Positions 37,127 through 39,213 of a stretch of 40,026 nt of DNA are shown piece after piece. The stretch spans positions 1 to 40,026 of the forward strand of contig JBJMMA010000247.1 of NCBI GenBank assembly GCA_045805065.1, read 5' to 3'. Positions within the stretch are counted from its first letter, which is position 1; each line of letters starts with the position of its first letter. The notes under the pieces are model-generated. The model was not told the origin of the DNA. It saw only the letters and a list, made by a program, of their open reading frames with translations, and searched no databases. The stretch is from Bdellovibrionia bacterium (lineage in GTDB: Bacteria; Bdellovibrionota; UBA1018). The translations under genes were made by a program, and so were the position numbers.

Positions 37127-39213
37127 TTCGAGAGCCCCTTCTTGAGTTGCTGAAGCTGGCAACTTGGGCCTGAGCCACTGGGAGCACGCCTGACATCGAT
37201 GGCGTTTAAAACTGATTTTGAGATACCGACCCGACTGCCAAGCACATCCCTGAACGTTTTGGCATCCGCTGGATCAAGCACCGCACCCACCTCTTTCAGG
37301 GCCATTGCGGTAAAAGGATCGACCGAATCACGCGGAATTCCTTTCAGCGCCCAATACTGCGAGCGCATCGCATCGCCGCCATGAAGATGCGATCTGACTT
37401 GCGCCTCATAGGATTCAAATTTCTGCGTTAAGACCGATCTGAACTTTGGATTTCCTGAAAATCGAAGCATGGGTCCCGGCCCGACGATGAGAACGTTCAC
37501 CTTCTTTGGCCATTCATGCAGAGTGATGGACCCAATGAGTTCGGGAAAGTTCCCCGCATAATCCTTCACAACGTAGAAGTCGCCGAACTTGGATGACTTG
37601 AACTTCGTGAGTCCCTGAATGTAAGCTTCGCTGGTTTTTGGCGGGTAGAGTTTTTTCACGGCTTCCTTGGAAAGCCCAAGGTCAGCAAGGCCCGCAATGA
37701 AACTTCGATCGCTCACTTCAATGGTCTTGCTCTTGCCGCCCAGGTCGTAGCCCAGAAGCTGGGCAGCTTGCTCAAGGCTGCTGAAGGGCTGAGCGCGTGC
37801 CGCAATGTTGTCGGAATGATGATCAATCGGCACAAACGAAAATCCATTCTTGGCGAACACGCTCTCGACATCCGGAGATTCGCCTGGCATCTCAACGACG
37901 GCGATCTTTTCCACGCCCAGCTTCTTTGCTGTTTCGACAATCTCATTTGCCAGATGTGCCGAAAGCTTTACGCCATGCTTGTAGGCATCTCCGTTCAAAC
38001 GCATCAGATGAGCGCCGCTGGACCTGGCAACTCGGCAGATTTCAATCGCCTCGGCATCGTTGGCAGGAGCCACGATCAGCGTTTTTGAGTTCTTGGGACT
38101 CAGATGAGTCTGAGGCGGATCGCTGAGCTCGGTCGAGAAATGCTCCGGATCAATTGTCGGTCCGACATAGAAAATCTCATGTCGCTCCCGAGCTTCGTCA
38201 AGAAGCTTTGATATCTCGCTGACGGGCGTTGTCTGAAGCTGAGATGGCTCGTGAAAGTAATGTGCCCAGAGCCGAAACTCAGGCGAACCAATCACCTGAC
38301 TCGGCGATACTCCGCGCGAAGCCTTATAAGCCGGAAAGTGAAAGACCGGCCGATCCACGTTCACAGGCACGCTGAGATTCTTGTTAGCCGCTAACTGAGG
38401 GTACTTGGCCGTCAGATATTGAACGACTCCGGCGCGCGCGTTCTGAATTCTCTGTTTGATCTCGGTTCGAAGCTCCGCCGATTGAGCGGTCGAATCAAAA
38501 TACGCACCAAAAAGTTTGTCGATATCCTTCGATGTCATCTTCTCAAGGCGACTCAAATAGCGATTCAGCTGAAAGAGCGCCTCAGCCGCGTCTTTCTGAG
38601 AAAGAGCACTGAGCTTAGCTTGTGGGATGAGATCCAGATAGCGCGCTAAACCGTCTTCCGCGGGTTTTGCATAGCCTTGAAAGGCCTGACTGAGCGATGG
38701 CGTGATGACATGCTGTCCAGCCATTGAGATCATTTCCGGACTGTTCAGAATGATCTGATTTCCGAGAATGTGATTGAGTGTCATCTGTCCCATCCACTCA
38801 CCCATCTGCGCAGGCGTTAGCTTTGAGACGGACTTTGCGCTCACGATCCCCGTACCCTGCATCTGCACCGTGGCACGGGTCCAGCGGGGATCGGGCGACG
38901 CGCTTTGCTCAAGCTGGACAAACGTCGGATAAGCAGGAAGCGATGGAAGCTCGATCCCCTGTGACAGAAGACTTCCGCCGATCTCAGCGAACATGGAGAG
39001 AGGCTCGCCGGTCCTGACCTGAAGATCGTTTCCAAACCGGTCTCTGGCCAGGTAGCGGTCGATCCCACGCTTTGAGCCAAGCTTTTTGATGATTTCGGGG
39101 CTTCCCTGAGTGAAATATTGAACAGGATCCACGCCCGCCCGGGCATGGCTCACCGTCAATACACTGACTATGAAGCAGTAAACTGCTGCTGTGTATAAAC
39201 GATATCCGTTCAA
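37120..39213 (-). CDS. secreted protein: degenerate kinase-like N-region + DHH (NrN-like) phosphoesterase domain
   Basis: GGAGGAGG RBS before TTG; signal peptide ending ARA; NDAEAIEI, VVEMP, IDHH, SSLEQ, SDRSFIAGL motifs. Confidence 0.6.
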   Translation of the reverse strand: MNGYRLYTAAVYCFIVSVLTVSHARAGVDPVQYFTQGSPEIIKKLGSKRGIDRYLARDRFGNDLQVRTGEPLSMFAEIGGSLLSQGIELPSLPAYPTFVQLEQSASPDPRWTRATVQMQGTGIVSAKSVSKLTPAQMGEWMGQMTLNHILGNQIILNSPEMISMAGQHVITPSLSQAFQGYAKPAEDGLARYLDLIPQAKLSALSQKDAAEALFQLNRYLSRLEKMTSKDIDKLFGAYFDSTAQSAELRTEIKQRIQNARAGVVQYLTAKYPQLAANKNLSVPVNVDRPVFHFPAYKASRGVSPSQVIGSPEFRLWAHYFHEPSQLQTTPVSEISKLLDEARERHEIFYVGPTIDPEHFSTELSDPPQTHLSPKNSKTLIVAPANDAEAIEICRVARSSGAHLMRLNGDAYKHGVKLSAHLANEIVETAKKLGVEKIAVVEMPGESPDVESVFAKNGFSFVPIDHHSDNIAARAQPFSSLEQAAQLLGYDLGGKSKTIEVSDRSFIAGLADLGLSKEAVKKLYPPKTSEAYIQGLTKFKSSKFGDFYVVKDYAGNFPELIGSITLHEWPKKVNVLIVGPGPMLRFSGNPKFRSVLTQKFESYEAQVRSHLHGGDAMRSQYWALKGIPRDSVDPFTAMALKEVGAVLDPADAKTFRDVLGSRVGISKSVLNAIDVRRAPSGSGPSCQLQQLKKGLSKW

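Follow-up and report, generated by a model that had tools for sequence, protein, structure and literature searches.

A putatively exported NrN-type phosphodiesterase domain beyond CRISPR, joined to a degenerate kinase-like fold and encoded ahead of four NTase-ART genes in a Bdellovibrionia bacterium

The DNA analysed here, a stretch of 40,026 nucleotides from a Bdellovibrionia bacterium (hereafter the window), carries a run of same-strand genes that opens with a gene for a 697-aa protein and continues into four genes encoding a CCA-adding-like NTase fused to a probable H-Y-E ADP-ribosyltransferase (ART) domain. The features of this run are as follows.

39222..39230, (-) strand: Shine-Dalgarno-like GGGAGGAGG, 8 nt upstream of the TTG, read from the sequence
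37120..39213, (-) strand: gene (ORF) of the 697-aa protein, with kinase-like and NrN-like domains
39136..39213, (-) strand: putative Sec signal peptide, residues 1-26, from sequence features
38164..39135, (-) strand: PI4KII/Fam20/CtkA/HipA-like kinase fold, residues ~27-350, apparently catalytically degenerate (VIA, Atlas structure)
37282..38097, (-) strand: NrN-type DHH phosphodiesterase domain, residues 373-644 (profiles, Foldseek, VIA, hhalign)
34838..37162, (-) strand: NTase-ART paralogue 1, 774 aa, database start 37126, with a signal peptide and C-terminal HPEWV-type repeats
32235..34841, (-) strand: NTase-ART paralogue 2, 868 aa
29353..32271, (-) strand: NTase-ART paralogue 3, 972 aa
26861..29356, (-) strand: NTase-ART paralogue 4, 831 aa, with a weak ankyrin match
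25989..26930, (-) strand: cupredoxin-like protein, 313 aa, closing the same-strand run
25991..26012, (-) strand: terminator-like hairpin and T-run directly 3' of the last gene, by consensus match only

The 697-aa reading frame starts with TTG, is matched by an identical protein in the protein collection (P0001) and gave an AF2 model with pLDDT 91.6 and pTM 0.89. The next ORF begins at 37162 (at 37126 in its 762-aa database form) and overlaps the stop codon of this frame (37120-37122); the gene leads the same-strand run, in keeping with a preliminary description that had placed it at the head of an NTase operon. At the far end of the run, the cupredoxin-like gene has an equivalent position in a same-genus genome (L015 9715-10578), and terminator-like sites in the region are no more numerous than shuffled expectation. 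Neither the 697-aa protein nor any of its four NTase-ART neighbours was assigned to a family by searches of Pfam and NCBIfam. The GC content around the gene (0.53-0.54) is the same as in the rest of the window and thus gives no sign of recent acquisition. The sequencing runs found comprise four of soil-metagenome DNA, all belonging to a single study, and none of RNA.

The signal peptide that had been proposed for the protein agrees with its N-terminus, in which a basic residue and a hydrophobic stretch (LYTAAVYCFIVSVLTV) precede SHA/ARA; an A-x-D motif (A26/D29) that is 78-80% conserved among 46 family rows comes next. The N-terminal helix has low pLDDT in the AF2 model. From this call, made by inspection and a crude script heuristic, we infer that the protein is exported by the Sec route.

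In this genome the NTase-ART family numbers about 24 copies. The NTase part resembles CCA/A-adding enzymes (Foldseek E 6e-6 to 3e-4, VIA Z 10.2-11.8), and the neighbours have a Pol-beta NTase head-and-neck fold with G-G ... D-x-D, the GG...DxD residues (model G53, G54, D94, D96) being invariant in 26 sequences. Thirty-four of the 50 listed VIA rows fall on model 309-436, which covers the ART sub-domain (model 318-436); 33 of these are members of the ADP-ribosyltransferase superfamily and one is a phage pre-ejectosome, and the best match, to diphtheria toxin, reaches Z 6.0 for what is a sub-domain of a larger model. H339, F378-Y379 and E430 are invariant or near-invariant, and H339/Y379/E430 form a candidate H-Y-E triad. 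This ART-like domain was not mentioned in the preliminary description. An alignment search of genome contigs for related NTase-ART loci found 69, all in MAGs that bear the title Bacteriovoracaceae, Pseudobdellovibrionaceae, Bdellovibrionales, Bdellovibrionia, Bdellovibrionota, Deltaproteobacteria or Proteobacteria.

The C-terminal domain of the 697-aa protein had been called an NrN-type DHH phosphodiesterase, and fold and profile comparisons alike place it with NrN rather than with NrnA, RecJ or GdpP. The best phmmer match in the PDB was NrN (E 0.012); the family profile strengthened this to E 1.8e-16, against E 1.4 for NrnA, and the PADLOC DHH_CorA model matched the protein at 1.7e-6. Foldseek placed NrN entries in all four top positions (E 3e-7), with TM by target of 0.57-0.63 for NrN versus 0.35-0.40 for DhhP, TM1595, NrnA and GdpP. 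VIA aligned 232-236 of 251-252 residues with 9lqb, 9lqa and 9lqc (Z 13.0-13.3, rmsd 3.6-3.8) and scored Z 11.7 for NrN 9lq9, against Z 7.0-8.0 for RecJ and PAP phosphatase. The kinase-fused clade, to which the protein belongs (see below), aligned with the CorA-type clade by hhalign over 236 columns (probability 100, E 4e-43), and the phmmer search reached genuine NrN-CorA fusions, as 12 of 12 long proteins tested matched PADLOC CorA at 2e-45 to 3e-94. Pfam DHH (PF01368) had no match in the 697-aa protein at E up to 1 and matched two other loci of the same genome. An ordinary NrnA or RecJ was considered and rejected: those enzymes are encoded elsewhere in the genome, and the domain has a DHH fold that clusters with NrN.

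The motifs of this domain, including the five peptide strings on which the family call had first been made, are:

38038-38070, (-) strand: APANDAEAIEI, residues 382-392
38050..38061, (-) strand: N-D-A-E motif, residues 385-388, with D386 and E388 near-invariant
37885-37905, (-) strand: IAVVEMP, residues 437-443
37891..37893, (-) strand: E441 of V-E-M-P, 98% conserved, at DHH motif II
37810-37827, (-) strand: IDHHSD, residues 463-468
37816..37824, (-) strand: D464-H465-H466, DHH catalytic motif, aligning to the DHH of PDB NrN
37750-37788, (-) strand: PFSSLEQAAQLLG, residues 476-488
37768..37782, (-) strand: S-S-L-E-Q, residues 478-482 (SALEQ in NrN)
37669-37716, (-) strand: VSDRSFIAGLADLGLS, residues 500-515
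37708..37710, (-) strand: D502 of V-S-D-R-S, aligning with the Asp of NrN A-N-D-K-A
37372..37380, (-) strand: G612-G613-D614, counterpart of the GGG(H) motif in the DHHA1 lobe

All five strings lie in the one 697-aa ORF (residues 382-515), within 37300-38090, and they are not chance resemblances, because their key columns are conserved across the family alignment. In that alignment of 62 sequences, columns conserved at 90% or more are D386, E388, E441, D464, H465, H466, E481, Q482, D502 and G613, and among the 59 rows that carry the NrN-like domain the catalytic-motif columns are about 98% conserved. The activity of Bacteroides fragilis NrN requires D85/H86/H87 (PMC10600005), and PDB entry titles name the further mutants 'NrN E21A' and 'NrN D119A'. 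E388 is probably the counterpart of E21, a mapping taken from the VIA range (model 376..644 to chain 9..259), and the counterpart of D502 is probably D119, numbered by a one-residue offset. The catalytic residues of the NrN-like domain are thus conserved, and the domain appears to be catalytically intact.

How close is this protein to the NrN of CRISPR loci? A FastTree tree of 127 domains with a midpoint root, a single quick method, puts the 697-aa protein in a clade of 57 rows (50 of them kinase-fused; support 99) and all 15 CorA-labelled rows in a different clade of 40 rows (support 96). The subfamily assignment of the preliminary description therefore holds as regards the NrN branch of DHH proteins, but not if it is taken to mean an orthologue of CRISPR NrN, from whose clade the domain is separate. 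The NrN branch is thereby shown to contain no fewer than two large clades outside CRISPR. One of these is kinase-fused; in the other, fusions to Macro and alpha/beta-hydrolase domains are frequent. Many members of these NrN-like clades have an apparent signal peptide, and both clades occur beside the expanded, putatively exported NTase-ART family in Bdellovibrio-like bacteria.

No CRISPR-like tandem array was found anywhere in the window and no cas family was found by Pfam among ORFs of at least 150 aa at 14701..40025, which bears out, for cas genes over that part, the earlier statement that the window has neither. In the whole genome, the Cmr2 model of Cas10 had no match and Csm1 scored 20 bits against a cut-off of 170 bits, and there was no CorA effector, the CorA model matching 46 positions only (E 7.5e-4). 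The description of the gene as lying outside a CRISPR context thus extends to a genome assembly that is 94% complete in 262 contigs, in which a CRISPR locus elsewhere was considered and rejected, as Cas10 had no match at the cut-off. In excerpts from two reports, NrN figures solely as an accessory, in the cytoplasm, to type III CRISPR systems of the CorA type (PMC10600005, PMC12255297), and a literature search of titles and abstract openings found no paper placing NrN outside CRISPR.

The N-terminal domain has a fold most like that of atypical kinases, with VIA scores of Z 13.3 for 4hne (229 residues aligned), 12.6 for 5wrr, 12.2 for 4kqb and 11.8 for 3akk, against Z 7-8 for ordinary kinases; alignment lengths with the atypical kinases were 211-236 residues. 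The Atlas structure matches of the domain are HipA_2 (TM 0.54/0.69). At the candidate positions of the catalytic-loop and metal-binding Asp, the 697-aa protein has I154 and S173, and its candidate beta-3 Lys is R67 or absent. Six of 46 relatives keep both candidate Asp, in the context G-N-x-D ... L-D-x-T-Q-x-F, and D58, R222, E224 and R260 are 87-96% conserved. The domain seems, on an alignment that is divergent, to have lost both catalytic Asp, and kinase activity has presumably been lost with them. The preliminary description did not report this kinase-like domain. A predicted complex of the domain (residues 26-360) with the NTase-ART module scored 0.00 and carries no weight either way. Together, these comparisons establish the domain identities of the 697-aa protein.

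The association with NTase-ART genes recurs, but it is not obligate. The order NrN-like then NTase-ART is conserved in a same-genus genome (G001); independently, in a genome of another family (G036), a member of a different NrN-like clade is flanked by an alpha/beta-hydrolase+Macro gene on one side and by an NTase-ART gene on the other; and metagenome contigs were searched with a clade-B alignment, one such contig (L098) having the NrN-like and NTase-ART genes convergent. Of 33 inspected NrN-like loci, four have NTase-ART in their flanks, and two of these four represent one locus shared within a single genus; the 16 NrN-like loci from other families of the phylum have none, and an NrN-like or kinase-like gene lies near only two of the 69 NTase-ART loci. 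Many contigs are short, and related genomes are not independent. In a sample of 401 genomes of the phylum, NTase-ART is present in 9 of 20 genomes with an NrN-like/kinase-like gene versus 14 of 381 without, and 11 of the 20 genomes with an NrN-like gene had no NTase-ART match with the query used. An operon-like arrangement and a recurrent linkage are thereby established.

There is also a link to Macro domains, one that the preliminary description had missed. Macro and alpha/beta-hydrolase domains recur as fusion partners or neighbours of the NrN-like domain: a Macro domain is fused in 4 of 89 matches scanned (P0016, P0061, P0069, P0140) and also in the loci L016, L017 and, weakly, L096. A stand-alone, apparently exported Macro protein is encoded elsewhere in the genome of the 697-aa protein (L095 1258-2097).

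Our preferred interpretation, held tentatively and at a little short of an even chance, is that the 697-aa protein is an exported hydrolase of a nucleotide/ADP-ribose conjugate made by the NTase-ART enzymes. The signal peptide would export the two-domain protein, in which the degenerate kinase fold would probably serve in binding or positioning, since the catalytic aspartates have apparently been lost. [quoted passage not shown] Because NrN is described as highly specific for SAM-AMP (PMC10600005), the analogy is weak evidence for chemistry. The conjugate would be synthesized by the co-encoded, putatively exported NTase-ART enzymes, and the protein, together with Macro-domain proteins, would serve as their partner, erasing or processing the conjugate for self-protection or product turnover. 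Both the class of substrate and this writer-eraser relation are read from the analogy and from the company the gene keeps.

A bolder form of this idea, which we consider a long shot, is a CRISPR-independent exported writer/eraser system. In prey or in the periplasm, the NTase-ART enzyme would ADP-ribosylate a target and go on to place a nucleotide on a ribose hydroxyl as a cap; alternatively, it would produce a free conjugate similar to SAM-AMP. The pseudokinase-guided NrN-like domain would specifically remove the nucleotide and Macro the ADP-ribose, protecting the producer or resetting the modification. If this is true, NrN-type enzymes would be general erasers of ribose-linked nucleotides, with SAM-AMP turnover in CRISPR as one special case.

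The protein might instead be an effector in predation or competition, exported into prey or the medium, where its phosphodiesterase would destroy the target's signalling nucleotides or its short oligonucleotides (e.g. pApA, pGpG, cyclic dinucleotides, other nucleotide second messengers) or scavenge nucleotides; the kinase-like domain would do the targeting, and adjacency to NTase-ART would reflect the clustering of secreted genes. Its putative signal peptide would suit such a role, as would a host in the Bdellovibrionota, a mostly predatory phylum, and the restriction of the 69 NTase-ART loci to MAGs with Bdellovibrionota-type, Deltaproteobacteria or Proteobacteria titles; 29 of the 33 NrN-like loci have no adjacent NTase-ART, and ordinary DHH relatives degrade pApA/pGpG (PDB titles; PMC10600005). 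However, the domain is far nearer to NrN than to the pApA/pGpG enzymes, and NrN is reported in excerpts from its description not to cut pApA or cA2-cA6 (PMC10600005). The repeated Macro fusion points to ADP-ribose-type substrates, and the co-occurrence with NTase-ART (9/20 versus 14/381 genomes) likewise argues against such an effector, so that we regard it as unlikely. The preliminary description had left a choice between an eraser partner and a nucleotide-destroying effector; gene linkage, seen in a minority of loci only, favours the former.

It is improbable, in our judgement, that the domain processes ADP-ribose derivatives together with Macro and independently of the NTase, for example by opening an ADP-ribose cyclic phosphate or cleaving a phosphodiester within an ADP-ribosyl adduct and leaving the rest to Macro, in a two-step clean-up of ART products. 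Single polypeptides with the orders kinase-like-NrN-Macro, NrN-Macro, NrN-hydrolase-Macro and hydrolase-Macro-NrN speak for such a pathway, as do the hydrolase+Macro gene adjoining the NrN-like gene in G036 and the ART-like domain of the neighbours. Yet Macro occurs in only 4 of the 89 scanned matches, in the kinase-fused clade on one member only (P0016), and is absent from the 697-aa protein and its operon; moreover, such activity has no biochemical precedent in the NrN branch. Finally, we hold it very doubtful that the work is done by the kinase-like domain, acting as an atypical kinase or a nucleotide-transferring enzyme like Fam20, CtkA, HipA or SelO-type proteins with the NrN-like domain accessory or regulatory, for despite the strong fold match (Z 11.8-13.3 to PI4KIIalpha, Fam20A/C and CtkA), the secretion of Fam20 kinases and CtkA themselves, the 6 of 46 members keeping both candidate Asp and the 87-96% conserved D58, R222, E224 and R260, this protein has I154 and S173 at the candidate catalytic positions and R67 or nothing as candidate beta-3 Lys, and it is within the NrN-like domain that every near-invariant residue of the family lies.

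The proposed eraser or processing partner of NTase-ART would have parallels of different kinds in known systems. In Legionella, SidE/SidJ-type proteins comprise an ART and phosphodiesterase effector under the control of a kinase-fold protein, and the same module types (ART, phosphodiesterase and kinase-like fold) likewise occur here in one locus; here, though, the phosphodiesterase fold is another one, no sequence relation was found, predicted export is by Sec and not by a type IV system, and nothing points to ubiquitin chemistry. Fam20 kinases and Helicobacter pylori CtkA carry secretion signals, as the 697-aa protein putatively does. With the PI4KII/Fam20/CtkA/HipA kinases the N-terminal domain has a common fold but no sequence-family match, and their catalytic Asp are not kept at its candidate positions. 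Ordinary DHH/DHHA1 enzymes (NrnA, the GdpP catalytic domain, TM1595, DhhP, RecJ) resemble the C-terminal domain in their superfamily fold and in having the metal-binding DHH motif, but match it much more weakly (TM 0.35-0.40, Z 7-8, profile E 1.4).

The closest comparison is with NrN itself (B. fragilis, from a type III-B CRISPR system, CorA-associated; PDB 9lq9, 9lqa, 9lqb, 9lqc). The two have a common compact fold of about 250 residues and the motifs N-D-x-E, E-x-P, D-H-H, S-x-L-E-Q, N/S-D-[KR] and G-G-[GD], and the mutated NrN residues (DHH, E21, D119) all have counterparts in the 697-aa protein, those of E21 and D119 by inferred mapping; identity, on the other hand, is only 17-18%. Relative to NrN, the 697-aa protein adds a putative signal peptide and a kinase-like domain, and no Cas10, CorA effector or CRISPR array was found in its company. 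The locus offers an assayable lead to nucleotide/ADP-ribose conjugate chemistry, possibly outside the cytoplasm, and the non-CRISPR clades provide a comparative handle on the determinants of NrN substrate specificity. Whereas NrN has so far been known only from the destruction of SAM-AMP, an NrN-type domain is found here beyond CRISPR, in a predicted exported protein, joined to a pseudokinase-like domain and encoded ahead of four NTase-ART genes.

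The five peptide strings on which the preliminary description built its phosphodiesterase all fall in one ORF, at residues 382–515 (37669-38070, inside its interval 37300..38090), and they mark conserved positions. The 697-aa product of this ORF is a two-domain, apparently exported protein, and its gene stands in an operon-like arrangement with four genes of the NTase-ART family (CCA-adding-like NTase plus probable ADP-ribosyltransferase domain), with recurrent linkage of NrN-like genes to NTase-ART and Macro:

37120..39213, minus strand: 697-aa ORF, TTG start 8 bases downstream of GGGAGGAGG
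34838-37162, minus strand: NTase-ART gene 1
32235-34841, minus strand: NTase-ART gene 2
29353-32271, minus strand: NTase-ART gene 3
26861-29356, minus strand: NTase-ART gene 4
25989-26930, minus strand: cupredoxin-like gene, ~300 aa, after the NTase-ART genes

As proposed, the NrN-like gene heads an NTase operon: the four NTase-ART genes come next downstream on the same strand, overlapping or with tiny gaps, and a terminator-like hairpin follows them and the cupredoxin-like gene. The latter ends the run in a genome of the same genus as well (L015 9715-10578), with sthA next in both. A divergent 237-aa ORF (39315-40025, plus strand) with a hydrophobic N-terminus continues beyond the window edge and matched nothing in Pfam at E up to 1. 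The N-terminus of the 697-aa protein resembles a Sec signal peptide, which would imply export, and the A-x-D motif behind it is retained in ~80% of relatives in the family alignment.

No Pfam or NCBIfam family, the DHH model included, matched the 697-aa protein. Its best PDB sequence match was NrN (E 0.012), the DHH phosphodiesterase found with CorA in type III CRISPR loci; residues 384–522 match the PADLOC model DHH_CorA (1.7e-6), and the family profile recovered three NrN sequences from the PDB at 1.8e-16 to 2.5e-14, with NrnA only at E 1.4. An alignment-based AlphaFold2 model (pLDDT 91.6, pTM 0.89) put four NrN entries on top in Foldseek (E 3e-7, TM by target 0.57–0.63), with DhhP, TM1595, NrnA and GdpP below them (0.35–0.40), while in VIA-align model residues 373–644 matched NrN at Z 13.0–13.3 (rmsd 3.6–3.8, 232–236 of 251–252 residues) versus Z 7.0–8.0 for RecJ and PAP phosphatase. 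Because sequence, profile and structure tests all point to NrN, neither a missing DHH fold nor a grouping with NrnA or RecJ was found.

As read from the alignments, the NrN-type active site is intact. In a 62-sequence alignment, conservation reaches at least 90% at ten residues (D386, E388, E441, D464, H465, H466, E481, Q482, D502 and G613), and the same columns are ~98% conserved among the 59 domain-carrying rows of the family alignment. D464-H465-H466 aligns with the NrN DHH triad, D85/H86/H87 in the Bacteroides fragilis enzyme, which requires it for activity (PMC10600005). D502 aligns with the A-N-D-K Asp of NrN (probably the deposited mutant's D119), and E388 probably corresponds to NrN E21, both by residue numbers that we infer.

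Exhaustive phmmer searching returned 143 proteins at E ≤0.001, 52 of them at ≤1e-10. A domain census with local HMMs covered 151 sequences (145 proteins and six locus ORFs): 53 combine a kinase-like with an NrN-like domain, nine have the kinase-like domain only, and 89 the NrN-like domain only, repeated in two of these (three matches in one chain in P0046, 1027 aa; two in P0145, 806 aa). The family search extends to true CRISPR NrN: PADLOC CorA models were matched by 12 of 12 tested long proteins in which the DHH domain is terminal (2e-45 to 3e-94). In a tree of 127 domains (FastTree, one quick method, midpoint root), the window protein lies within a clade of 57 rows (support 99), 50 of them kinase-fused. 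A second clade, of 30 rows (support 99), comprises Macro/hydrolase fusions and NrN-only proteins, i.e. those without any other domain of the set, several with apparent signal peptides; the second NrN-like copy of the source genome (G000:C233) is inside it. The third (40 rows, support 96) contains every CorA-linked row, and its profile matches that of the 57-row clade with probability 100 (E 4e-43, 236 columns). Since the clades are separate and this profile–profile match is strong, the domain of the 697-aa protein is NrN-like by descent and fold, yet no orthologue of CRISPR NrN. Elsewhere, an NrN-like match (G139:C15:4699-5571) is probably a pseudogene, as three stops (one each TGA, TAG and TAA) interrupt it.

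The placement of the gene outside a CRISPR context also held: the window has no CRISPR-like array, and the source genome yielded neither a Cas10 match above the cut-off nor a CorA effector. Two ordinary DHH proteins are encoded elsewhere in that genome.

All four NTase-ART proteins share a signal peptide and a ~440-aa N-terminal module, which shows 58–84% identity across 120 relatives among the matches listed (at least 522 in public data). Their C-termini differ, with HPEWV-type helical repeats in the window; relatives elsewhere carry ankyrin, HEAT, RasGEF or FGE-sulfatase domains. Two parts make up the module in its model (pLDDT 87.7). The NTase part resembles CCA-adding, A-adding and poly(A) polymerases (Foldseek E 6e-6, VIA Z 10.2–11.8), with G-G ... 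D-x-D invariant. To the C-terminal sub-domain (model 318–436) fall 34 of the 50 listed VIA rows, 33 of them from the ADP-ribosyltransferase superfamily and one a phage pre-ejectosome entry; diphtheria toxin scored Z 6.0, and PARPs, Tpt1, DarT, RES and others 3.9–5.5, values modest enough that ART identity is probable rather than shown. The invariant or near-invariant H339, F378-Y379 and E430 suggest the H-Y-E class. The family is expanded and apparently exported: the source genome carries ~24 members, which often form tandem arrays of 2–4, and all 69 related loci are in MAGs labelled Bacteriovoracaceae, Pseudobdellovibrionaceae, Bdellovibrionales, Bdellovibrionia, Bdellovibrionota, Deltaproteobacteria or Proteobacteria.

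The same order of NrN-like and NTase-ART genes is found in G001, of the same genus. In G036, of another family, an NrN-like gene of a clade other than the window protein's has an alpha/beta-hydrolase+Macro gene on one side and on the other an NTase-ART gene, with which it overlaps; metagenome contig L098 carries a convergent pair. Within a 401-genome sample of the phylum, which includes non-independent relatives and many short contigs, an NrN-like/kinase-like gene occurs in 20 genomes, NTase-ART in 23 and both in nine, that is, NTase-ART in 9/20 carriers versus 14/381 others, with none found in the remaining 11 carriers. Two of the nine are partial, G062 matching in the C-terminal repeats only and G079 in the kinase-like part only, at a contig end. 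NTase-ART adjoins only four of 33 inspected NrN-like loci (3/8, 1/9 and 0/16 in three sets), and an NrN-like or kinase-like gene flanks only two of 69 NTase-ART loci. The link is recurrent and enriched, not obligate. A stand-alone effector that destroys nucleotides is an unlikely reading of the 697-aa protein.

Fusions to the NrN-like domain, scanned across 89 matches of at least 380 aa (55 shorter ones left out), join it to Macro in P0016, P0061, P0069 and P0140, and to an alpha/beta-hydrolase in P0048, P0069 and P0140. Further Macro fusions occur at loci L016 and L017, and L096 has a weak Macro match (19.8 bits against a 22-bit cut-off). On another contig of the source genome (G000:C51, L095 1258-2097, plus strand), a 279-aa stand-alone Macro protein bears an apparent signal peptide; its usual N-terminal motif, A-A-N ... 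G-G-G, sits at the C-terminal end, suggesting that the Macro is duplicated or permuted. The NrN-Macro fusion gene of G062:C98 has, some 4 kb upstream, a gene (L017 1041-4724, plus strand) whose 1228-aa product contains the type I phosphodiesterase/nucleotide pyrophosphatase domain (PF01663, E 1.9e-16). The Macro fusions bear on another reading, an enzyme that processes ADP-ribose derivatives with Macro independently of the NTase, which we regard as unlikely.

The N-terminal domain was absent from the preliminary description. In VIA-align, model residues 27–280 matched PI4KIIalpha (Z 13.3, 229 residues), Fam20A (12.6), Fam20C (12.2) and Helicobacter pylori CtkA (11.8), versus Z 7–8 for ordinary protein kinases, and an independent ESM Atlas structure search found HipA_2 kinases (TM 0.54/0.69). 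A subset of relatives retains G-N-x-D ... G-x-H-F-x-x-L-D-x-T-Q-x-F and a Y-K-L-R-L-K strand; the corresponding stretches of the window protein read G-N-Q-I-I-L-N ... G-Q-H-V-I-T-P-S-L-S-Q-A-F and L-Q-V-R-T-G. Both candidate Asp residues are present in only six of 46 rows. The domain seems degenerate, a putative pseudokinase, on a reading that hangs on a divergent alignment. It occurs in other architectures too, as a 1765-aa protein of G104:C8 (L022 2122-7416, plus strand) has it at residues 60–413, with HEAT repeats near 1300–1400 and no NrN-like domain. That the kinase-like domain is the working part of the 697-aa protein is improbable.

We tentatively favour, at somewhat less than even confidence, an NrN-like eraser or processor of an NTase-ART conjugate. 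The NTase-ART enzymes would produce a nucleotide conjugate, and the 697-aa protein, together with Macro, would be the eraser or processing partner, serving self-protection or turnover. The literature searched (including PMC10600005 and PMC12255297) places NrN only in CorA-type CRISPR loci, and the enzyme cuts SAM-AMP, and not pApA or cA2-6 (PMC10600005). By comparison with NrN acting on SAM-AMP, the NrN-like domain may cleave the phosphodiester that joins a nucleotide to a ribose hydroxyl.
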